This document shows positions 5,672-63,618 of a DNA stretch of 64,000 nt, one piece after another. The stretch's first letter is position 1. Each line of letters starts with the position of its first letter. Both the position numbers and the translations under genes were made by a program. Origin of the DNA: an uncultured Clostridia bacterium. GTDB lineage: Bacteria > Bacillota > Clostridia > Christensenellales > UBA1242. The notes below the pieces were generated by a model. That model was not told the DNA's origin. It saw only the letters and a list, made by a program, of their open reading frames with translations, and ran no database searches. The stretch lies in assembly GCA_947629745.1 (NCBI GenBank), contig CANREZ010000001.1:15300-79299 (forward strand), read 5' to 3'.

Positions 5672-5781
5672 TTAATCTCTCCTAAGTATGACTAATTATA
5701 ACATATAAAAATTTATTTGTAAATACCCAACTTATAATTTTTAGCAAAAATAAAAAAGTGCTATATGTAGCACCTTTTTAT

Positions 5782-8700
5782 CTATTCGCTAATACTCGAA
5801 TCATCCTCAAAGTATTTGGTCATACTCTCGTCCACTGCACGTGTGTCAGATGGGACATCGTCCACGCTAGTGTACTCAGTATTCTTGATAGAAGCAAAAC
5901 CTGTACCTGCCGGGATAGGCTTGCCCACTATGACGTTCTCACTAAGACCACGCAAGTGGTCGACTTTGCCTTTTAGTGCAGCATCGGTTAGAGCCTTACT
6001 AGTCTCCTGGAATGATGCAGCGGCAAGGAAGCTCTCTGAGTGATTGGATGCCTTGGTGATACCTAGTACCTGTGCGCGCACAGTAGCTGGCACTCCGCCC
6101 TCGGCAAGTACCCTCTTATTCTCCTCTTCGAATACGCGGATATCCACGACATCGCCGGTAAGGAGATTGGTATCTCCAGCGTCCTTCACCTTCACTTTAC
6201 GTAGCATTTGTTTCACAATCACTTCGATATGCTTTGGATTGATCTTGACACCTTGTGGAGCATATGTTGCTAACACTTCGGATAACAAGTATTCCTCAAC
6301 AGCCTTTGTACCACGAGTGATGAGCAAGTCATTTGGATTGATAGATCCTGCAGTCAATACATCACCTGCCTCCACATGATCGCCGGTCTTAACCTTTAGA
6401 TTTAGTCCATATGGGATGATGTAATGGCCATCACCCTCTGGGTTCTTCACAAATATCTCATAATATTTGCCACCCTCTTTGGCTGAAGATTGTTTCTCCT
6501 CCACCACGACTTGTCCTGCCACCTCGGATATAGTTGCAGCACCTTTTGGATTGCGTGCCTCAAATATTTCCTCGACTCTTGGCAGACCTTGGGTGATGTC
6601 GGCAGCACTTGCGATACCACCAGTGTGGAAGGTACGCATGGTCAGCTGTGTTCCTGGTTCACCAATGGATTGTGCTGCGATGATTCCCACAGCCTCGCCG
6701 ATAGGAATGATATCGTTATTGACCATGTTCTTGCCATAACATTTCTGGCAAATACCTGTCTTTGACTTGCAGGTGAGCACAGTCCTGATATTCACTTTTT
6801 CTATCCCTGCTGCAATGATCTGCTCGGCCATAGCCTTGGTGATCATAGTGTCAGCTGGGACTATCACTTTCTTTGTCTTTGGATTTATCACATCATCTAC
6901 TGTGAATCTACCCACAATGCGCTCCTCTAGTGAGCAAACTGGAGTATTATCCTTCACAATAGTGCTGACTTCCATACCCTTTACTTTCTCGCCGTTATTC
7001 TTGAAGCAGTCATCCTCGGTGATAACCACATCTTGTGCGACGACGACAAGTCTACGGGTGAGGTATCCAGAGTCAGCAGTCTTTAACACCTTGTCTTGAA
7101 GACCTTTTCTAGCACCACGAGATGATATGAAATATTCTAGTGGTGATGCGCCTTCACGGAAGTTTGACTTGACAGGAATGTCAATAGGACGTCCAGAAGA
7201 ATTGGACATAATACCACGCATTCCGCATAGTTGTAACACCTGGCTAGACGAACCACGCGCTCCAGACTGGGACATGATACGAATAGGATTCATTGGATCC
7301 ATATTCTCGATCACTATCTTTTGGAGTTTATTCGTAGTCTCTTTCCACAGTGCGATATTCTTCTCGAGTTTCTCCTCATTAGTGAGTAGTCCTCGTGCAT
7401 AGAATTTCTCATTCTCAGAGACTTTCTTCTCAGTCTCCTCGATTAATTCTTTCTTTTGCTTTGGAATGACCATATCAAAGACGTTGATAGTGATAGCGCC
7501 GATTGTCGCATATTTGTATCCAAGTGTCTTGATATTGTCTAGCATCTTACTAGTCTCAGTCACGCCTAGATTGTCAAAACACGTGCTGATGATAGTGCTA
7601 AGTGACTTGTCAGTAATTGGGAATGTGACCTCATATTGATTCACATTCTCACGCTTTGTCCTATCGACCAAGCCGATATTCTGAGGAATCTTCTGATTGA
7701 ATATGATCTGACCAGCGGATGCACGTACTCTATCTGTCACCATCTTGCCATTAAACATACTGCTACGTCTAACGTATATAGGCGACTGTATGCCAATCTG
7801 CTTGTCAGCATATGCCATGAGCACTTCATCTTCGTCTTTAAAGTATCTATCTCTGCCTAGTGCGTCTGGCTTGTCATTTAGATAAGTCAAGTAGTATGAG
7901 CCAAGTATCATATCCTGAGTTGGGGTACAAATAGGTTTGCCCGTTGCTGGCTTTAGGATATTGTTGCTTGCGAGCATTAGTATCCTTGCCTCAGCAATTG
8001 CCTCAGGTGATAGTGGCACATGCACAGCCATCTGGTCACCATCGAAGTCTGCGTTAAATCCACCGCAAACTAGTGGGTGAAGCTTGATAGCCTTGCCCTC
8101 GACTAACACAGGCTCGAATGCTTGGATAGATAGTCTGTGAAGTGTAGGTGCACGGTTTAGTAACACTGGGTGGTCCTTGATGACCTCATCTAGTATATCC
8201 CACACCTCTGGCCTTCGTGCGTCAATAGCACGACGAGCACTACGGATATTGAGGGATACGTTTTGCTCAAGCAGTCTCCTCATGATGAATGGCTTGAATA
8301 ATTCAAGCGCCATGAGTTTTGGCAGACCGCATTGATACATCTTTAGTTCTGGTCCAACGACGATAACCGAACGACCGGAGTAGTCAACACGCTTGCCAAG
8401 CAAGTTCTGACGGAATCTACCAGTCTTACCCTTGAGTGCAGCAGTGAGGCTCTTTAGCTCTCTCTGCCTTGCGCCTTGCACAGCTTTGCCGCGCTTGCCG
8501 TTCTCGATAAGTGCGTCGACTGCTTCCTGCAACATTCTCTTCTCATTACGAATGATGACTTCTGGAGCACCAATCGATATGAATTTCTTTAACCTATTAT
8601 TGCGGTTGATAATCCTGCGATATAAGTCATTGATATCTGATGTGGCGAATCTGCCACCATCTAGTTGGATCATAGGACGAATATCAGGAGGGATCACTGG

Positions 8701-24679: not shown

Positions 24680-24842
24680 GACTTGCTTTGTTACTTATGG
24701 ATTAAGGCTATAAGTATTGAATGATATATGTAATATTGTTTTATTTATCTAAGTTTTATATTTTATTATTTCCATATTCTTTATATAGCAAATCTATATA
24801 TAGGCCGAGAGTGTAGGTACTTGACTGGAGTAAGAATGCCAG

Positions 24843-24894
24843 TTCAATCCCCTCAGACCGCAGACGCGGCCAGCTCCCCCTACTACGGGGCGCC
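24843..24894 (-). repeat. Solo arm of the GGGGAGCTG/CTGAGGGGATTGAGC repeat family (core only)
   Basis: As written the sequence reads TTCAATCCCCTCAG-ACCGCAGACGCGGC-CAGCTCCCCCTACTACGGGGCGCC. This is the reverse complement of the family core. Confidence 0.85.
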
Positions 24895-24928
24895 TTATAA
24901 TTATAAGGTTAAAAGCAAATTTTAATAC

Positions 24929-32905: not shown

Positions 32906-33011
32906 ACACCCACAAGTTTAAGTATCTTCATAAAGCACTCTATTTTAAGTGATTATGATAAGCAAAATTGTTATAAAATCATATCTGATACTCTTATATC
33001 TTATCCTTATA

Positions 33012-33068
33012 GACGCCCACGAGTTCGGGGAGCTGGCAACTTTCGTTGTCTAAGGGAATTGAGCAAAC
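33012..33068 (+). repeat. Degenerate solo arm of the repeat family
   Basis: The sequence reads GACGCCCACGAGTTCGGGGAGCTG-GCAACTTTCGTTGT-CTAAGGGAATTGAGC. Confidence 0.75.
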
Positions 33069-33140
33069 TTTTCACTACCTTTCATTCGTGCATTCTGTCC
33101 TCTTATATTTTTTAATTCTATCAATATTATCTCTTCCTTA

Positions 33141-33210
33141 TTAGGCCGCCCTTAGTAAGGGGGCTGGCGGTGAAACCGCCTGAAGGGATTGAGCGGGCTT
33201 ATGTGCTTAC
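33141..33210 (+). repeat. Solo arm of the repeat family
   Basis: The sequence reads TTAGGCCGCCCTTAGTAAGGGGGCTG-GCGGTGAAACCGC-CTGAAGGGATTGAGCGGGCTTATGTGCTTAC. Confidence 0.85.
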
Positions 33211-44816: not shown

Positions 44817-45113
44817 CCGCGAAACCTGGAAGTTAGCTGAGCGCATAAAAAATGCGAAGCCGAGCGTATAAACGAGCGCGTGCCATTTGGGGCCCCCACA
44901 AAAATAGCTCGCGGCCTTTTGTGGAAAAAGCGAAACCCGCTAAATTCTTAATAAATCCTTATTTAAAAACCTACTTCTGGGCCAACTAAAAACTCCAGCA
45001 AAAATAGCGGAGCGGTCTTTTGCTGGAAAAGAGGCGAAGCCGCGCGAAACCTGGAAGTTAGCTGAGCGTATAAAAAATGCGAAGCTAACGCTTAAACGAG
45101 CGCGTGCTTCGCC
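44817..45113. repeat. Duplicated hairpin-rich units between tRNA-Gly and the ABC-F leader
   Basis: A ~68-nt segment (CCGCGAAACCTGGAAGTTAGCTGAGCG.ATAAAAAATGCGAAGC...AAACGAGCGCGTGC) occurs at 44817-44884 and 45040-45113. A ~48-nt hairpin segment (C.CAAAAATAGC..GCGG.CTTTTG.GGAAAA) occurs at 44893-44940 and 44993-45045. Confidence 0.8.
45070..45112 (-). terminator. Terminator-like hairpin directly after tRNA-Gly
   Basis: On the minus strand, a GCGAAGC...GCTTCGC stem of 7 bp is followed by ATTTTTTAT. Confidence 0.5.
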
Positions 45114-45115
45114 TC

Positions 45116-45189
45116 TGGAGCAGGTAGCGGGAATCGAACCCGCAACCAAAGCTTGGGAAGCTTTTATTTTACCACTAAACTATACCTGC
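45116..45189 (-). tRNA. tRNA-Gly (anticodon CCC), CCA encoded
   Basis: In reverse complement: acceptor stem GCAGGTA/TACCTGC; anticodon arm AAAGC-TTCCCAA-GCTTT; T-arm GCGGGTTCGATTCCCGC; and 3' TCCA. Confidence 0.85.
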
Positions 45190-50535: not shown

Positions 50536-50643
50536 GGGTCAAAACCCTTTCCTGCATAAGCTATGTCCTAAGACTAACTAATCTTGCAGACATATGGGGC
50601 AAAACACTGTCATAGGTTAAAATAAATTATAATGATATAATTA

Positions 50644-51120
50644 TTAGAGGGTATCGAGTTGATAGCAAGAAAGATAAAAGCTTGCTCAATCCCCTCAGAT
50701 TGCATACGCAATCAGCTCCCCCTACTACGGGGCGCCTAAATGAGGTTATAAGCAGATAGGATAAAGATATACAAATATAAATATAAATATAATTTTAACC
50801 GATATATATTTGTCTTTTAATCAGCAGATGATAAAAAATTAGATTTATTATTGTTTCTTTCATTTTTATATTTAATATGACGACCTCATAAAGGCTCCCT
50901 TTAGTAAGGGGAGCTGGCGGAGACTTCCGCCTGAGGGGATTGAGCCGACTTACGTGCTTTCTTAGGTTCGCGCTCATGACCCACTTGTATAATTTCATAT
51001 TTATATAGGTTAAAATTAATTAAAATGAAGATATAGTATTAACTATTAACATAAAAGATAAAAATAAATTATTAACACAAGAAAATTTATTATAATCAAG
51101 GAGAGTGGCGTGCCACAAAA
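50644..51120 (-). repeat. Full-length ~470-nt composite element (copy D, inverted relative to copies F and G)
   Basis: The parts, in window order, are: an arm at 50644-50747 as reverse complement; an AT-rich core; an arm at 50881-50985; a conserved AT-rich module; and ATTATAA plus GTGGCGTGCCAC at 51089-51116. The 52-nt arm core 50685-50736 is the exact reverse complement of 62125-62176. Confidence 0.85.
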
Positions 51121-56343: not shown

Positions 56344-56532
56344 AGAGTGCAGTACACTACTTTCCCAGTTCTAATCAATTGTATCTTGTGTTGATGCTGT
56401 AATTCTATTTTTATCCTAATTATTTAGTGGGTCATGAGCGCGAACCTAAGTGGGTACGTAAGCCGCCTCAATCCCCTCAGGCGGTGATAAACACCGCCAG
56501 CTCCCCTTACTAAAAGGGAGCCTTATGAGGTT
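56344..56532 (+). repeat. Truncated composite element (copy E): hairpin/TTCTAAT module + AT-rich module + one arm
   Basis: The arm at 56426-56532 reads AGTGGGTCATGAGCGCGAACCTAAG...CTCAATCCCCTCAG-GCGGTGATAAACACCGC-CAGCTCCCCTTACTAAAAGGGAGCC. It ends about 100 nt before the vanW start. Confidence 0.85.
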
Positions 56533-58039: not shown

Positions 58040-58107
58040 GTGACATGTCACGGTCCTAGACTATAAGAAAACTTTATATATAGTCAGTATACGTGAATTA
58101 AAAGATA

Positions 58108-58580
58108 CCCCCAATCCGGCGTCAGCCACTTTCCTCGTTATAATCAGTAACATCTTGTATTAATAATTTATTTTTATCTTTTATGTTAATATTTGTTATT
58201 CTAATATTTCATCCTTTATTTATTTTATTATTTAGCAGGTCATGAGCGTGAACCTAAGTAAGCCCGTAAGTCGGCTCAATCCCCTCAGTCGGTGATAAAC
58301 ACCGCCAGCTCCCCTTACTAAAAGGTAGCCTTTATGAGGTCGTTATATTAAATATAAAAATGAAATAAACAATAATCAATTTAATTTTTGTATCATTGAC
58401 CTTATAAGAGAATGATAAGAATTTGTTGTAATTATATTTTTTATTAAGTAATTAATTTTTCCCTATTTATTTTAACCTTATTTAGGCGCCCCGTAGTAGG
58501 GGGAGCTGCCACCGATTAGGTGGCTGAGGGGATTGAGCGGGCTCTTCATCCAACTTTGCTACCAACTTCACACCCACTAA
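58108..58580 (+). repeat. Full-length ~470-nt composite element (copy F)
   Basis: The parts are: a hairpin/TTATAAT module at 58108-58147; a conserved AT-rich module; an arm at 58234-58342 as reverse complement; an AT-rich core at 58343-58481; and an arm at 58482-58580. Confidence 0.85.
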
Positions 58581-58660
58581 AAATAATATCAGTATACTAT
58601 ATTATCAACCCACGAATTATTCCATGTCACTTTATACCCTACTCAGAATTTATATATTTA

Positions 58661-58689
58661 TTGACAAAGTAACTTAATATAGATACAAT
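58661..58689 (+). promoter_or_regulatory. Near-consensus promoter abutting the LRR lipoprotein start codon
   Basis: TTGACA, a 17-nt spacer, then TACAAT. The -10 ends 6 nt before the ATG at 58696 and there is no Shine-Dalgarno sequence. Confidence 0.5.
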
Positions 58690-58695
58690 GTAGGT

Positions 58696-60750
58696 ATGAA
58701 GAAGAAATGGTATACATTAATAGTAGCAATGGTGGCATTTTTGCTGCCAATTTTTACTTTGGTTGCATGTGGAGACAAACCTAATACTCCACCAAAAGAC
58801 CCAAGTGGTGACCCACCACCAGTCACGAGCACAAGTTTTCACAACATATATAGTGATAAGAAATCTATATTAGAGCAATTCTATGGCAATGAGACGAACA
58901 CTATACTTGCAGCAAATGCTCTAGGTGAAGATGGTGAGCCAAGTAATGACTCTACAGAGGAGGAAAACACCCCAAGTGAGGAGACATCATCAAATCCTGA
59001 GGAGAATAATCCAAGTGAAGAGAATCCGACTAATCCTGAGGAAAATACTGAGGAGGGTGAGGAGAATCCCGATGGCAATCCTGAGACTGACCCAAACGAG
59101 GGTGACGACGGGAATGACACACTCGATGACCTAGAACAACCTGAGGATGATTACTCCGAACCGGGTATCACTTTCTCATATTACTGCCACGAAGATGCAA
59201 ATGAAGTACTTAGCAAATATCTAATCAATCCTGACAACGTCTACTCCTGCATCACCTACAATGATGAACTAGTGTGTGTGGAATTTTACAATGACATATC
59301 CATGCAGGAATTAGTGGCTCTTAGGAAAAACCTCGAGGAATGTTATCAATTCTACAACGCAAGGAAAGACCATGGTGAAAATTTCGCTAATTACACAGAG
59401 GACTATTTCCGCCCAGGGTTATTCTACTATATTAATCACCTAGCCTTCATCAACGAAGTGCCAATCAGTGCAATACTTGGTGATGAAATAGAAAAAGACG
59501 GCCCATGCTATATCGCTAAGAAATCTCACACCCTTTTGAAATTCGTAGACGATAGATACGTCCCAGAAGATTTTGACTGGACGAATGACGAATTAAGACA
59601 CGAGACATTTGGAGGCTCTTACACCCTCCCTGAGGGAATAGAAACCATTGCCTCACAAGCCCTTGTATGTGGTGACTTTTATTATGAAAAATTGATACTC
59701 CCAAGCACAGTTAGAGTGATTGAAGATCATGCTCTATATGTGCCAGATATAGAGTTAAACGATGGACTGGAATTCATCGGCGACTATGGGATAGAGGGCC
59801 TGTCTCATACACCTCAGATCCCATCCAGTGTCACATATATTGGCGCATACGGAATATTTAATCGCGCTGAATTTTATGGGATAAATCAAGACTCATTCTA
59901 TATCGTGGATAATTGGATCTTATATAGTAAATTTGCATTAACTCCAAAGGCTTTACACATACCAGAAGGAATAGTAGGAATTGCTAAATTAAGTTTATTA
60001 AATTCCCCTACAAAATATTATATCCCAGAGAGCGTAGAATACATTTGTTACAATTTCGCAACTGGCACTGGACACATAGGATTATTCTTCGAAGCAGATA
60101 GCATGAAGGATGGTTGGACTGACGAATTGTTCGTTACTTCTTCCTTTAGAGATAATACGCGTAGATTGCATATATATTATAATTACACTGAGGCCGACGA
60201 AGAAGACTTCGAAAATGCATTAAATCGTGGTGGCAGGACTATTTGTGATGAGATGGATGAATACTACTGTTACGGACCAGAACACAACACTGACACACTA
60301 TATATCGATGCTGATGTAGAATTTATCGCCCAAGGTCTCTATTACACCGAAGTGGAGCAGATAATCGTTGACCCAGACAATCCATATTATTGCAGTGTGG
60401 ATGGCGTGATGTATTCCAAGGATATGAAGACTCTAATCTGCGTGCCATCTGCTCGCAAAAAGCCATACTCTATCCCTGAGACTGTGACAGGAATTTACAA
60501 CTTAGCACTAAATAACTTCTACGTTCATCAGAAATACATCTTCATTCCAAAAGAAGTGGTATCCTTTGGTTGGGGAATATTCTATTTCTGGGATACAACT
60601 TGCACAGTGTATTTTGAGACAAAAACTGTGAGCCCAAGTATATTGTTTAATGATATTGCATGGTCATGCTCCACAAATATGGAATTTGGCGTGACATATG
60701 AGGAATATTTGGAGGCAATCAACACTAAATACAATGCACAAATTGCATAG
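58696..60750 (+). CDS. Surface lipoprotein with an acidic Pro/Glu/Asn linker and BspA-type leucine-rich repeats
   Basis: It has a lipobox (LVACGD). LRR_5-like repeats recur: IPSSVTYIGAYGIF, IPEGIVGIAKLSL, IPESVEYICYNF and IPETVTGIYNLAL. Confidence 0.75.
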   Translation: MKKKWYTLIVAMVAFLLPIFTLVACGDKPNTPPKDPSGDPPPVTSTSFHNIYSDKKSILEQFYGNETNTILAANALGEDGEPSNDSTEEENTPSEETSSNPEENNPSEENPTNPEENTEEGEENPDGNPETDPNEGDDGNDTLDDLEQPEDDYSEPGITFSYYCHEDANEVLSKYLINPDNVYSCITYNDELVCVEFYNDISMQELVALRKNLEECYQFYNARKDHGENFANYTEDYFRPGLFYYINHLAFINEVPISAILGDEIEKDGPCYIAKKSHTLLKFVDDRYVPEDFDWTNDELRHETFGGSYTLPEGIETIASQALVCGDFYYEKLILPSTVRVIEDHALYVPDIELNDGLEFIGDYGIEGLSHTPQIPSSVTYIGAYGIFNRAEFYGINQDSFYIVDNWILYSKFALTPKALHIPEGIVGIAKLSLLNSPTKYYIPESVEYICYNFATGTGHIGLFFEADSMKDGWTDELFVTSSFRDNTRRLHIYYNYTEADEEDFENALNRGGRTICDEMDEYYCYGPEHNTDTLYIDADVEFIAQGLYYTEVEQIIVDPDNPYYCSVDGVMYSKDMKTLICVPSARKKPYSIPETVTGIYNLALNNFYVHQKYIFIPKEVVSFGWGIFYFWDTTCTVYFETKTVSPSILFNDIAWSCSTNMEFGVTYEEYLEAINTKYNAQIA

Positions 60751-60883
60751 ATTAGCTTATAGATTTAGTACAAAACAATCGAGAGTTATATGAGTTTCAG
60801 CGCACAAAATGTGTAAATTGTATTATAGTTTAATGCCTCAATATTTTGTGCAAAAAAACACGTGACTATAATTAAGATAAAAA

Positions 60884-60909
60884 ATGAGTACTTCCTGGTA
60901 CTCATTTTT
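60884..60909 (+). terminator. Intrinsic terminator after the LRR gene
   Basis: An ATGAGTAC...GTACTCAT stem is followed by TTTT. Confidence 0.65.
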
Positions 60910-61072
60910 ATGTAATATTTAGCAAATATTTTGAAACTTTTAATCTTATGTTATATGTAATTATCTACTATATCCTAATACTATTGCTGCCTATATTCTA
61001 ATATGCAAGAAATGAGTAGTGGCAAATTGTATATTAGTCAAATAAGATTTCTTTATCAATTACGTGATAAGA

Positions 61073-61618
61073 CTAATCGCGTGAAGTTTCTTTCTTTTGA
61101 TCAGCGAGATATTCCTCTAGCATAGCTTCCATTGCCTCTTTGAACTTGCCATATGGCTCAATCAAGTGGAGCTCTTGACAAATCATCTCAACAATTAGCT
61201 CTTCCTTGTCAGATGCCTCAGCTGCAATATTTTCTAGCTTTGTCAATCTCCTAGATGCCTTTCGATAACGATTTGCAAGCATGGATAGAATAGCCTTGTT
61301 GCAATGTCCACGTTCCCTTGCGTGCTCTATATATTTATACATATGACTACGAGCAGAAATTAGCGGCCAATATTGCTTGAAGTATTTATCACAAGCCTTC
61401 TCTATCTCCTCTGTATGCTCTAGTGGTGCTAGCCCCAGACCTGCAAAATATCTATTGATTATACCCACTGCCTGATAACCACGCCTTATCGCATTGTACA
61501 TTGATTCATGCAACTCATAGTCTGGCAAATCATCTGTACAAAGCGTAATATCTGACTCGAGTTTTATCTTCTTCTCCTCTTCAATTTCCTTTATGATCTC
61601 TTCACTTTTGTTTCTCAT
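61073..61618 (-). CDS. Hypothetical helical protein
   Basis: Clean 181-aa ORF. I recognise no family. Confidence 0.5.
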   Translation of the reverse strand: MRNKSEEIIKEIEEEKKIKLESDITLCTDDLPDYELHESMYNAIRRGYQAVGIINRYFAGLGLAPLEHTEEIEKACDKYFKQYWPLISARSHMYKYIEHARERGHCNKAILSMLANRYRKASRRLTKLENIAAEASDKEELIVEMICQELHLIEPYGKFKEAMEAMLEEYLADQKKETSRD

Positions 61619-61724
61619 ATTTTCCCCTCATCCTTATTGTATAACAAATAAATTTTTTGTCAAGATGTAATTTTTCGGGATAGGTGTAACTGCTTTTGTA
61701 AACCGAGCAAACATAAAAGTATTA

Positions 61725-62220
61725 AGTGGGTCATGAGCGTGAACCTAAGTAGGTCCGTAAGCCGGCTCAATGTGGCACGCCACTTTCCCAGTTATAATTA
61801 ATATATCTTGTATTAATAATTTATTTTTATCTTTTATGTTAATATTTCTTAATTCTAATATTTCATATTTATATCACTTTTTTAGTGGGTCATAAGCATG
61901 AACCTAAGTAGGTCCGTAAGCCGGCTCAATCCCCTCAGTCGGTGATAAACATCGCCAGCTCCCCCTACTACGGGGCGCCTCTAAGCGGTTGAATATAAAT
62001 AAAAATTAGGTCAAAAGAACTAATCAAAAAATATTGTAATTAGTAATGACTAAAAGAGTTTCAATTTAACTTTTATATATTTTATGTGGATATAACTTTT
62101 ATCTCTAAATAATAACCTCATTTAGGCGCCCCGTAGTAGGGGGAGCTGATTGCGTATGCAATCTGAGGGGATTGAGCGTGCCTTTTTACTATCTTATGTT
62201 CCAACTCCTCTACCCTCTAA
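61725..62220 (+). repeat. Composite element (copy G) preceded by a truncated arm fused to the GTGGCACGCCAC module
   Basis: The parts are: a truncated arm at 61725-61771; GTGGCACGCCAC-TTTCCCAG-TTATAAT at 61772-61798; an AT-rich module; an arm at 61884-61979 as reverse complement; a core; and an arm at 62121-62220. Confidence 0.85.
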
Positions 62221-62265
62221 ATATATGCAATCCTCTTACTTTTTACTATTCACTTCTACCTCATT

Positions 62266-62365
62266 AAAGGCCGCCCTTAGTAAGGGGGGCTGGCAACTTT
62301 CGTTGCCTGAGGGGATTGAGCCGGCTTTTTCTCTCTTGCTACCAACTCATGTACTCTCTATCTAT
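62266..62365 (+). repeat. Solo arm (tandem, same orientation as the 62121 arm)
   Basis: The sequence reads AAAGGCCGCCCTTAGTAAGGGGGGCTG-GCAACTTTCGTTGC-CTGAGGGGATTGAGCCGGC followed by a tail. Confidence 0.85.
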
Positions 62366-62424
62366 ATAGGTTAGCTAAACAAAAATAATAAAAATATAAT
62401 AATTAGTTAAATTAAAATAATCTA

Positions 62425-62505
62425 CCCCAGAAAAGTGGCGTGCCACCTGAGGGGATTGAGCGGGCATACATTCCCATCTTATATTCCAACTATATTCCCA
62501 CCACA
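62425..62505 (+). repeat. Variant arm: the left half is replaced by CCCCAGAAAA-GTGGCGTGCCAC
   Basis: The sequence reads CCCCAGAAAAGTGGCGTGCCAC-CTGAGGGGATTGAGCGGGC followed by a CCAACT-containing tail. Confidence 0.8.
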
Positions 62506-62535
62506 TAGTTACATAAGTACACATAATTTACATTT

Positions 62536-62595
62536 AGGAAAGTGGCGTGCCACATTGAGCGGGCTTTTTTTCCATCTGGCTACTAACTTTATTCC
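62536..62595 (+). repeat. Variant arm: AGGAAA-GTGGCGTGCCAC-ATTGAGCGGGC
   Basis: The same junction (CTCAAT|GTGGCACGCCAC) is seen in reverse complement at 61766-61783. Confidence 0.75.
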
Positions 62596-62652
62596 TTTTA
62601 AAAATAATATCATCACATTATATTATTAACCCAGAAAAGTGACATGCTACAC

Positions 62653-62678
62653 AAAAAAGACCCACCTAATGGTGAGTC
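62653..62678 (-). terminator. Intrinsic terminator after the 62783..63271 gene
   Basis: On the minus strand, a GACTCACC-ATTA-GGTGGGTC stem is followed by TTTTTT. Confidence 0.6.
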
Positions 62679-62782
62679 CTTTAACTACTGCTTATACATC
62701 TAATACTAAGATAAACTTTTTCTATCCTATATCAAGATACAACTATATCCTATCAGTGCATCAAATATCAAGATACAGTACT

Positions 62783-63271
62783 CTATTTCCTTGACACATC
62801 TAGGTTATCTAGAGCATCAGTTCCTGTATATGTACCGCCAAATGGCATAGATTGAGCGATTGATGCAAGAGTTGGATTGGCGTTTGCCTTCTCCTCAATA
62901 GCATACAGGCTCATCATAAGACTAGTAAACTTCGAATCAACAGATGCGCCTCTAGCGCCCAGCTTGATAGGAAGATACTGCCCTGCATTCTCAGCCTCGA
63001 CTAATACTTCCCTATATTTGCCGATAGCCTCATCCATTGGCTCTACATTGTCCTCAAAATTCTTAATAAGTTTGTAAAACTCTCTCGCAAATGTGAGATT
63101 CTCTAACTTATCTAGATATTCAGGACTCTCACAAATGCTATCCATACTATCCTTGTACACTCTCACTCTATCCTTCATATGCTTCACAATAGCACAAAGC
63201 CCATCAAGATTCTTGTACATAGTCCAAAATTTTTGGTCTAATTCTCTTGCTTCACACTCTTTCGTATCCAT
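62783..63271 (-). CDS. Hypothetical protein
   Basis: The start is set at the ATG at 63271 (MDTKECEA), which lies 6 nt after AGGAGTG. The ORF track extends to 63304. A TATAAT lies at 63298-63293 on the minus strand. Confidence 0.5.
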   Translation of the reverse strand: MDTKECEARELDQKFWTMYKNLDGLCAIVKHMKDRVRVYKDSMDSICESPEYLDKLENLTFAREFYKLIKNFEDNVEPMDEAIGKYREVLVEAENAGQYLPIKLGARGASVDSKFTSLMMSLYAIEEKANANPTLASIAQSMPFGGTYTGTDALDNLDVSRK

Positions 63272-63399
63272 AAAATTCACTCCTATAGTAGTATTATAAA
63301 ACAAAATAAAATATTGTCAAGACCCAAATTAAAAAAGTCTAGTCACATAGCTGCATATTATACACGGTGCGAATTCTGGACAATTTGTGCCAAACCCTC

Positions 63400-63618
63400 G
63401 GTGGATAACTATAAGATTTCCACAAATATTTGGGCACTTCTCATAAATTATAGAACACTTTTGGAACAACAATTGTGGACAACTGTGCCAAAAATTGTGG
63501 ATAAGTGGATAACTTTTGAGGATAAGGGGTCAAAATATTCATTTTTATGCAAAAAAATACACTTTGTGCATTTTATTCACAGAAATTTATAATTCATGCA
63601 TTGTGGATAAGTGGATAA
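63400..63618. promoter_or_regulatory. DnaA-box cluster (candidate oriC segment or DnaA-titration/regulatory cluster)
   Basis: Boxes complementary to TTATCCACA are as follows. Perfect TGTGGATAA occurs at 63496-63504 and 63602-63610. Each abuts a 1-mismatch AGTGGATAA (63504-63512 and 63610-63618). Other 1-mismatch boxes are at 63400-63408, 63474-63482 and 63517-63525, plus 63573-63581 in the opposite orientation. AT-rich DNA flanks the cluster. Confidence 0.65.

Follow-up and report, generated by a model that had tools for sequence, protein, structure and literature searches.

Three blocks on one strand, namely a block of pyrimidines, the purine block that is its reverse complement and a further purine block in mirror order, make up the class II intrastrand purine-motif triplex, and this order was described for the BoxC/PIT/TMECO repeats of E. 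coli and other Proteobacteria, CCCTCNCCC-N3-6-GGGNGAGGG-N3-GGGNGAGGG (Hoyne et al. 2000; Holder et al. 2015, PMC4666352). TMECO forms a very stable triplex in vitro, as demonstrated by circular dichroism and nuclear magnetic resonance, and this triplex was not seen by in vivo dimethyl sulfate (DMS) footprinting; the repeats are strictly intergenic, have neither strand bias nor associated mobility genes, and are enriched at loci rearranged between strains (PMC4666352). It was also stated that purine-motif triplexes do not form in RNA, and the genome-wide ITxF search admits loops of 1-6 nt only (PMC4666352). Here we analyse a repeat dispersed over a 64-kb stretch of an uncultured Clostridia bacterium (contig CANREZ010000001.1 of assembly GCA_947629745.1; the whole stretch is referred to as the window), in which the three blocks follow in the same order and a hairpin of variable sequence, designated H2, stands between the second and the third. 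Since ITxF is restricted to short loops, units with a linker made of CT, a hairpin and T could not have been found by it. In our view, the chances are about even that H2 is part of a dispersed non-coding mosaic intergenic repeat of the REP/BoxC kind that folds as single-stranded DNA (ssDNA) and uses the hairpin as a structural connector. A triplex in these units is a more tentative proposal, to which we would give a little less than an even chance.

The sequence at 58503-58531 of the window reads GAGCTG-CCACCGATTAGGTGG-CTGAGGGG. The corresponding pattern GAGCTG-N8-30-CTGAGGGG has eight matches in the window against 0.01 expected from shuffled sequences, and admitting slightly degenerate flanks brings the set to 11 full and three partial units (Table 1). 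The unit is GC-rich, about 100 bases long and dispersed between the genes of an AT-rich, Firmicutes-like host genome; all 14 units are intergenic (six on the minus and eight on the plus strand) and have no consistent relation to genes. Read in its own orientation, a full unit consists of AACCTCAT-wwAGGC-[CCCC...loop...GGGG]AG-CT-[hairpin H2]-T-GAGGGGATTGAGC, after which one of two tails follows: the class-a tail, CGACTTACG...CTTAGGTTCGCGCTCATGACCCACT, is a hairpin in its own right, and the class-b tail is GGGCTTTT...CTTGCTACCAACT. The H2 insert is placed between ...GGGGAGCT and TGAGGGGATTGAGC in every one of the full units. Unlike these, the partial units start with another palindrome, AAAGTGGCGTGCCAC. 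The predicted fold energy of the unit is -45.6 kcal/mol (z -3.5) in the plus sense and -37.3 kcal/mol (z -2.6) in the reverse sense, ViennaRNA taking no account of triplexes.

Table 1. Repeat units and composites located in the window; H2 coordinates include the closing G-C.
Positions	Strand	Feature	H2 positions	H2 sequence and remarks
24842-24903	-	full unit between convergent genes	24856-24871	with G.T pair; tail end ATTGAAC
33003-33064	+	degenerate full unit	33035-33050	with G.T pair; tail CTAAGGGAATTGAGC
33133-33194	+	degenerate full unit	33166-33180	flanks GGGGGCTG and CTGAAGGG
50684-50745	-	full unit, class-b tail	50698-50713	same as at 62148
50884-50945	+	full unit, class-a tail	50916-50931	GGCGG-AGACTT-CCGCC
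56466-56530	-	full unit, class-a tail	56480-56498	perfect pairing
58274-58338	-	full unit, class-a tail	58288-58306	GGCGGTG-TTTAT-CACCGAC, second pair G.A
58476-58538	+	full unit with the hairpin first reported	58508-58524	TTAGGCGCCCC-GTAGT-AGGGGGAG-CT-[G CCACC GATTA GGTGG C]-T-GAGGGGATTGAGC
61717-61788	-	partial unit		palindrome joined to ATTGAGC and class-a tail
61924-61988	-	full unit, class-a tail	61938-61956	two mismatches (G.A and A.C)
62116-62177	+	full unit, class-b tail	62148-62163	GATTGC-GTAT-GCAATC
62260-62321	+	full unit	62292-62307	GGCAAC-TTTC-GTTGCC; purine arm GGGGGG without A
62430-62461	+	partial unit		palindrome AAAGTGGCGTGCCAC, then CTGAGGGGATTGAGC; no first hairpin
62537-62560	+	partial unit		palindrome AAAGTGGCGTGCCAC joined directly to ATTGAGC
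50621-51117	-	second composite copy		76% identical to the copy at 58125-58603
58125-58603	+	composite, about 480 bp
61771-62225	+	third composite copy		72-74% identical to the other two; further units downstream to about 62640

The likeness to BoxC/PIT/TMECO concerns not only the order of pyrimidine arm, purine arm and mirror purine block on one strand but also the general habit of the repeat, which is G-rich, multi-copy, intergenic, free of strand bias, without a known transposase and enriched at loci differing between relatives. One mismatched triad is common in both, and the putative triplex stem of 6-8 nt lies at the lower end of a range that begins at 6 nt. The differences are equally clear. 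The second linker measures 11-35 nt (CT, a hairpin of 4-10 bp and T) instead of 3 nt, which places it outside the 1-6 nt loops of ITxF; the first loop has 3-9 nt, the arms have 6-8 nt instead of 9-10 nt, and the sequences are dissimilar. By inspection, the TMECO consensus is not matched, because the blocks are shorter and H2 stands between them. The hosts here are Clostridia-type genomes and phage contigs, and the triplex that was shown in vitro for TMECO is predicted for these units.

REP/BIME/REPIN elements resemble the units in other respects, being short GC-rich imperfect palindromes between genes, single or clustered, in alternating orientation and with mosaic linkers; they lie after stop codons in either orientation and are thought to act as folded ssDNA. 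The units differ from them in having two hairpins and a mirror tail and in lacking the conserved 5' GTAG head of the REP palindrome (20-40 bp), GTAG being present only in the H1 loop of the class-b window units (H1 is the first hairpin). REPIN-RAYT systems, in which a Y1 transposase (RAYT) mobilises the elements, have been described mainly in Proteobacteria, and neither a RAYT nor an integrase domain is among the Pfam families reported for the larger open reading frames (ORFs) of the window (one scan: best 25 of 60), which covers 64 kb of a contig of at least 222 kb. The repeat appears to work like an intrastrand-triplex or REP-type repeat, but it departs from the short loops and consensus of TMECO and from the GTAG of REP. 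Integron attC sites share the conserved flanks around a variable central structure and are likewise read as folded ssDNA; however, GAGCTG on one side and CTGAGG on the other lack complementarity, core sites of the RYYYAAC / GTTRRRY type are absent, there is no cassette-array orientation, and attC-like folding was rejected because the flanks do not pair.

The first-pass annotation had described H2 as a self-complementary hairpin at a fixed position of the unit, variable in sequence and selected for structure rather than for sequence, and the window bears this out. Five of five basal positions are paired in 9 of the 11 H2 inserts (shuffle probability 0.002-0.04 per insert), none of the inserts is unpaired, and RNAalifold finds compensatory double changes at five of the six H2 pairs. 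A palindrome also lies directly upstream of 12/12 GGGGATTGAGC-like intergenic sites. The window loops are AT-rich (GTAT, TTTC, TTTAT and GATTA). Some stems are shared between copies (ATTGC and GCAAC in two each, GCGGTG in three), so the “at least six unrelated stem sequences” counted previously are better taken as five or six stem families, GCCGC, GCAAC, GCGG(TG), ATTGC and CCACC. Particularly instructive are the class-b units of the three composites, which are identical over the 35 nt leading up to H2 and over the 15 nt that follow it but not in H2, where two composites have ATTGC-GTAT-GCAAT and one has CCACC-GATTA-GGTGG; the GCAAC stem, in turn, is found in two window units with differing flanks. 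Therefore, the variants are not simply clonal subfamilies, which had been one of the objections foreseen, and the H2 type is not simply inherited together with its flanks.

Several details had to be amended. The flanks, taken at first as strictly invariant, are GGGCTG and CTGAAGGG at 33166, CTAAGGGA at 33035 and GGGGCTG at 62292. Among three copies initially given as GGCGGTG-TTTAT-CACCGCC, only that at 56480 deserves this formula, those at 58288 and 61938 being mismatched (Table 1). GTGGC-GT-GCCAC at 62435 is not an H2 variant: it is a separate module with neither GAGCTG nor the first hairpin upstream, and it recurs at 51105, 61772 and 62542. The rest of the variant list is correct apart from details. 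That H2 is one element of a three-block arrangement with mirror symmetry had gone unnoticed in that annotation.

To see the repeat outside the window, the exact window-type pattern was searched in one genome per GTDB species (185,579 genomes). It was found at three contig ends of one uncultured Oscillospiraceae metagenome-assembled genome (MAG) with 60% GC; the other 15 matches were due to chance and lay inside genes, and JGI metagenome contigs yielded chance matches only, so exact window-type flanks are rare. The MAG unit, GGCTCCCC-TTGCGGCA-AGGGGAGCTG-[TCACC-GAA-GGTGA]-CTGAGGGGATTGAGC, is followed by an inverted unit arranged tail-to-tail and joins both forms of the repeat, the viral-type H2 and the window-type ATTGAGC tail. 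All three units of this MAG (CAKUJL01; L002, L005 and L009) are no more than about 450 nt away from a contig end, which suggests that the repeats break short-read metagenomic assemblies.

A relaxed pattern, GGGAGCTG-N8-24-CTGAGGGG, matched at least 120 loci in IMG/VR, with about 60 distinct true units among the matches listed, on contigs spanning 41-74% GC; patterns in which H1 alone was fixed and the arms had different sequences gave at least 120 loci or close to 120, so that three patterns in all matched at least 120 loci each. The family counts below come from the matches listed in IMG/VR and from the Oscillospiraceae MAG and cover hundreds of units. All have the same architecture (pyrimidine arm, loop, purine arm, CT, hairpin, T and purine tail, as in GGCTCCCCTGTGTAAGGGGAGCTGTCAGCGAAGCTGACTGAGGGGTT), the H1 loops vary (TGTGTAA, CTCTG, TTGTCA and others), and the units occur single, in tandem or tail-to-tail. 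Literature searches on the sequence and on REP elements in Faecalibacterium returned nothing relevant, and no later work on intrastrand triplex repeats with a hairpin linker was found. Rfam, applied with gathering and permissive thresholds to the window and 22 family loci, recognised only tRNAs, one below-threshold match to a microRNA model being spurious and caused by the inverted repeat. This is a very large and apparently undescribed repeat family, to which the window repeat belongs, in our reading as a diverged, AT-adapted member.

Two IMG/VR contigs, 3300010283_000406 and 3300010279_000474 (L296 and L316), contain eleven units each, some of them in short tandem arrays that repeat every 159 nt or so (for example, 5833/5991/6150 and 8807/8966/9127) similar to the window cluster 62116-62640, where the spacings are 144, 140 and 99 nt. 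Another family contig, L144, has five units at 5700-6860, all in one orientation, with short genes lined up antisense to them: the upstream gene ends with its stop codon directly at CCCCCTCAG, while a Shine-Dalgarno sequence and ATG follow within about 20 nt of the other end, so that units are able to fill the intercistronic space almost wholly.

Family units were ascertained by the first hairpin and the tail position, not by the pairing of H2, whose length ranges from 11 to 35 nt (most commonly 15 nt) with stems from 4 to at least 10 bp. In 51 distinct H2 sequences of 15 nt, 96.4% of the positions are paired against 78.6% with shuffled partners; the covariation score is 0.43 against 0.097, none of 500 shuffles reached it, and the controls obtained by sliding collapse. 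The consensus of this class, G-T/G-C-N-N-C-GNA-G-N-N-G-A-C, means that its variation is concentrated in two pairs, and all four Watson-Crick combinations are present at one pair. No pairing filter was applied to the 201 distinct flank-defined inserts of 11-25 nt, whose first six positions comprise 1050 Watson-Crick pairs, 14 G.T, 1 A.C, 108 G.A/A.G and 12 others. The G.A at the second pair (GG...AC) is recurrent in the family, as it is in the window copies at 58288 and 61938. Read on the purine-rich strand, these mismatches are strongly strand-asymmetric and indicate that it is this single strand that folds. Of the three levels proposed previously for the selection on H2, namely RNA, ssDNA and a palindromic protein site, this speaks for a single strand and against the protein site on duplex DNA.

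Among 273 H2 loops, GAA occurs 71 times, GCA 48, GTA 15 and GGA 13, so that GNA triloops closed by C-G reach 54%, and GNNA tetraloops come next. C-GNA-G triloops characterise DNA minihairpins of very high stability, for example d(GCGAAGC), reportedly studied by Hirao, Yoshizawa and co-workers, and are typical of DNA rather than RNA hairpins. The likeness is limited to the loop, and the AT-rich H2 loops of the window do not share it.

The second line of evidence concerns the purine arm (R) and the tail. An exact 6-mer mirror relation between them is found in 149 of 203 parsed units. Mean identity over seven positions is 6.38 in the mirror sense, 4.79 in the direct sense and 5.46 +/- 0.05 with shuffled partners (0/2000 shuffles as high), and the mutual information between the 7x7 positions peaks on the anti-diagonal (R1-T7 0.67, R2-T6 0.74 and R4-T4 0.40 bits, where T1 to T7 are tail positions). 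The lengths of the G-runs in arm and tail agree as 4,4 in 32 units, 5,5 in 13, 3,3 in six and 1,1 in two (the GGGAGAG / GAGAG(G/A)G variants), and they disagree or are not scorable in nine. The L144 variant, GGCTCTCCC-TCT-GGGAGAGCTG-[H2]-CTGAGAGGG, is a good illustration, because its tail GAGAGGG mirrors its arm GGGAGAG just as GAGGGG mirrors GGGGAG. Units of a single contig that share a loop vary in concert in all three blocks, for example CTCCCT/AGGGAG/GAGGGA versus CTCCCC/GGGGAG/GAGGGG. In the window, the arm A(A)GGGG(G)AG and the tail GAGGGGA have a mirror identity of 6-7 of 7 in 9 of the 11 full units, and in the class-a units the relation reaches an eighth triad, T∗A-T.

The tail follows the arm also when units are ascertained on H1 only. 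The arm GGGAGAG is accompanied by the tail GAGAGG in 39 units and by GAGGGAG in one, GAGGGAG by GAGGGAG in 41 and by GAGAGG in none, and GGAGGAG by GAGGAGG in two of two units; the arm GGGGAAG has a tail GAT... or GAA... in 60 of 63 units, never GAG.... T∗A-T and A∗A-T, which these last tails would give, are allowed triads. A T opposite an A-T pair is not a Watson-Crick alternative but a canonical reverse-Hoogsteen triad. Simple pairing of the tail with the pyrimidine arm was rejected for this reason and also because it needs a direct repeat of the purine arm, which fits the units less well than the mirror.

These observations may be united in the following model. The CTCCCC-like pyrimidine arm would pair with R (GGGGAG) to form H1. 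Since the tail mirrors R, it can lie antiparallel to R, and GAGGGG would occupy the major groove of H1 through the triads G∗G-C, A∗A-T and T∗A-T. H2 would be situated at the site of the 3-nt loop of BoxC/PIT/TMECO, stacking at the base of the structure and turning the strand back. As a structured connector it would be constrained in geometry and pairing only, so its sequence would be free to drift. The folding strand would be the purine-rich one, most likely in ssDNA that is transiently unwound, extruded or present as a replication or recombination intermediate. Folding as DNA rather than RNA is what we infer from the GNA loops, from the lack of a transcript orientation and from the mirror relation, which is explicable only by a purine-motif triplex, a structure said to exclude RNA. 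In their distribution the units behave like REP/BIME or BoxC, being intergenic, clustered and present in both orientations, and they could represent pause sites of replication or recombination or the substrate of a mobilising enzyme. By analogy with TMECO, they may stall polymerases or promote rearrangement, which would suit their position at the edges of insertions (see below), although this is a correlation only; they may also have a role in mobility or genome instability. In its broadest form, the proposal is that of a hitherto unrecognised natural intrastrand DNA triplex architecture in which the second loop is a hairpin-capped connector of free sequence, forming a very large superfamily in gut Clostridia-type bacteria and phages and acting at the ssDNA level; we regard this as possible but would incline slightly against it.

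A number of facts weigh against the triplex. With 6-8 triads its stem is short, it is read here from sequence, and for TMECO itself in vivo DMS footprinting gave no protection; moreover, BoxC manages with a 3-nt loop, and the model leaves the need for a hairpin unexplained. In 28 units a T-A pair of H1 is replaced by a compensated C-G pair and the A of the tail is kept, which results in an A∗G-C mismatch. In the GGGGAAG class, position 5 of the tail is an A that the model does not explain. Only about 4-6 subfamily events in the past may underlie the mirror covariation. Two window units have degenerate tails, and the window H2 loops are not GNA. RNAalifold offers an alternative for the window in which the tail GGGG pairs with an upstream CCUC to give a three-way junction, although this involves 4 bp and no covariation. 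Finally, the viral contigs may include misclassified chromosomal DNA, and the gene-orientation statistics use crude ORF maps of high-GC contigs.

The most serious competitor is an action of the unit as RNA, either a small RNA or a stabiliser, processing site or terminator embedded in mRNA, which we consider unlikely. The G.T excess in H2 is equally compatible with G.U pairs, the fold of the unit has a z of -3.5, RNAalifold gives the three-way junction just mentioned, the composite contains a promoter-like GTGGCA-16-TATAAT, and in L144 five intercistronic units have a stop codon at one end and a Shine-Dalgarno sequence beyond the other. However, the L144 mRNA corresponds to the pyrimidine-rich strand, on which H2 would carry A.C and pyrimidine-pyrimidine mismatches. 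Just after stop codons, units are more frequent than in controls (about 16), whether forward (36) or reverse (44), so that, as in the window, no transcript strand is preferred. Rfam has no matching family for the window and the 22 family loci, U-tract terminators were not found at units, and the GNA triloops are those of DNA minihairpins. The mirror of arm and tail is left unexplained by an RNA, in which purine-motif triplexes do not form (PMC4666352).

Some narrower functions were tried and rejected. No unit is among the terminator-like sites, there are no T-runs and the tails are purine-rich, which is at variance with an intrinsic terminator; the tail does not serve as the Shine-Dalgarno sequence of a downstream gene (20 starts after the tail against 25.8 in controls); and no orientation bias relative to genes was seen on the crude ORF maps of the high-GC contigs. 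In the GGGGAAG-arm class (L173, L498-L515 and others) the tail CTGATGAGG equals the hammerhead core CUGAUGA and stands right after a GUC...GAC hairpin. A hammerhead ribozyme was dismissed, since Rfam gives no hammerhead match and the would-be cleavage nucleotide is G.

The pairing of H2 could also be kept without selection, if the copies were a few clonal subfamilies whose palindromes are held by template-switch correction or gene conversion. Quasi-palindromes are known to mutate through template-switch repair, several window copies do share stems, and the commonest 15-nt class varies much in only two of its six pairs. Nevertheless, H2 can be wholly different where the flanks are identical, one H2 is found with more than one set of flanks, as many as 201 distinct flank-defined inserts of 11-25 nt were collected, and all four Watson-Crick combinations appear at one pair. 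Such a mechanism predicts strand symmetry, in contrast to the observed 14 G.T versus 1 A.C and 108 G.A versus 12 others. The H1 stems adjacent to H2 stay constant in sequence, and this difference between two neighbouring hairpins needs selection. Purely mechanical maintenance therefore seems to us quite unlikely.

The window is an ordinary chromosome segment of about 40% GC with AT-rich spacers, which carries genes for EF-G, S7, rpoB/rpoC, an FtsH-type protease, phosphoketolase, VanW, a Y-family polymerase, QueH and three tRNAs. The nearest VanW homologues, 55-56% identical, are from metagenome assemblies. Two contigs (L044 and L045) are syntenic with the window around VanW, have short intergenic regions and contain no units. 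Compared with L044, the window has extra DNA at about 49.3-51.2 kb, at 54.9-56.6 kb (two small genes and a unit) and at 58.0-63.4 kb (most units, together with two small genes and one for a 684-aa lipoprotein); the window units sit at the edges of these lineage-specific insertions. The last of these, 58040-63420, places 5.4 kb between VanW and the next gene shared with L044; two direct composites flank the 684-aa lipoprotein gene and a 181-aa gene, after which the unit cluster and a 173-aa gene follow. None of the 684-aa, 181-aa and 173-aa proteins has a Pfam match.

Each composite is composed of a palindrome (degenerate in the 58125-58603 copy), TTATAAT, a conserved AT-rich stretch, an inverted class-a unit, an AT spacer of about 130 nt and a class-b unit, and the core shared by its two inverted units is about 63-74 nt long. 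The composites might accordingly be MITE-like (miniature inverted-repeat transposable elements), their inverted units serving as terminal repeats for a transposase encoded elsewhere and H2 lying in its recognition site. This would suit three composites of 72-76% identity with two inverted units each, their absence from the syntenic relatives and the 3.2-kb lineage-specific segment flanked by two direct composites. It also recalls the MITEs of Firmicutes and other bacteria (RUP, BOX, bcr1 and Correia), which likewise lie between genes, are modular and structured, have a lineage-specific distribution and form composites of a few hundred bp. Unlike these, the present repeats lack both defined terminal inverted repeats with target-site duplications and a parent insertion sequence, and no sequence similarity was found. 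Sharp ends and target-site duplications are not definable, as the relatives are only about 55% identical in protein and the composite ends and duplications are consequently unreadable. Besides, the two tails are unlike (class a versus class b), the units also occur single, in tandem and tail-to-tail, no transposase domain is among the Pfam families reported for the larger window ORFs (one scan: best 25 of 60), and blastn of the composite against plasmid and phage collections gave no match. As an account of H2 this is very unlikely, but it is compatible with the connector hairpin proposed above rather than exclusive of it, and composites may be how the units travel here.

That H2 is a palindromic duplex site for a dimeric protein, with the swapped stems as specificities, is hardly credible in spite of its near-perfect inverted repeat and conserved flanks, since strand asymmetry of non-Watson-Crick positions is meaningless in duplex DNA, stems range from 4 to at least 10 bp and H2 from 11 to 35 nt, single contigs contain hundreds of different stems, and the GNA preference indicates a folded strand.

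If the connector-hairpin fold is real, the units would add to the natural intrastrand triplex repeats a second class that is much more widespread, in another phylum and in phage genomes, with an architecture invisible to the earlier searches limited to loops of up to 6 nt. Hundreds of connector hairpins and several arm/tail variants would then constitute a built-in natural experiment, by which the long-standing question of whether such triplexes form and act in cells would become directly testable. In the window, the units also mark the edges of lineage-specific gene insertions.

The repeat has consequences for annotation as well. The unit cluster gives rise to spurious ORFs of 74 and 64 aa at 62150-62374 and 62435-62629 (peptides ...SLPEGIEPAF...), and the family is probably the source of many false small proteins in databases, so a unit model would improve the annotation of gut genomes.

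The palindrome GTGGCGTGCCAC of the partial units, which is able to take the place of the first hairpin and H2, occurs four times in the window (51105-51116, 61772-61783, 62435-62446 and 62542-62553), with degenerate copies at about 58133-58141 and at 62643-62654. It is preceded by GGAAA or GAGA on one strand and, in the composites, followed by TTTCC-n-TTATAAT. It reads TGGCAC-N5-TTTC, one base from the sigma-54 consensus TGGCAC-N5-TTGC, and the same region was scored in a promoter scan as the sigma-70-like GTGGCA-16-TATAAT.

Two other repeats were seen in the window. A 39-nt tandem duplication in the 684-aa lipoprotein gene (58960-59037) encodes an acidic EENxPSEE low-complexity stretch. Just 5' of tRNA-Gly (45116-45189) there is a 43-nt direct repeat (44818-44860 and 45043-45085), the copies of which are 98% identical and 225 nt apart and contain GCGCATAAAAAATGCG, a small hairpin.

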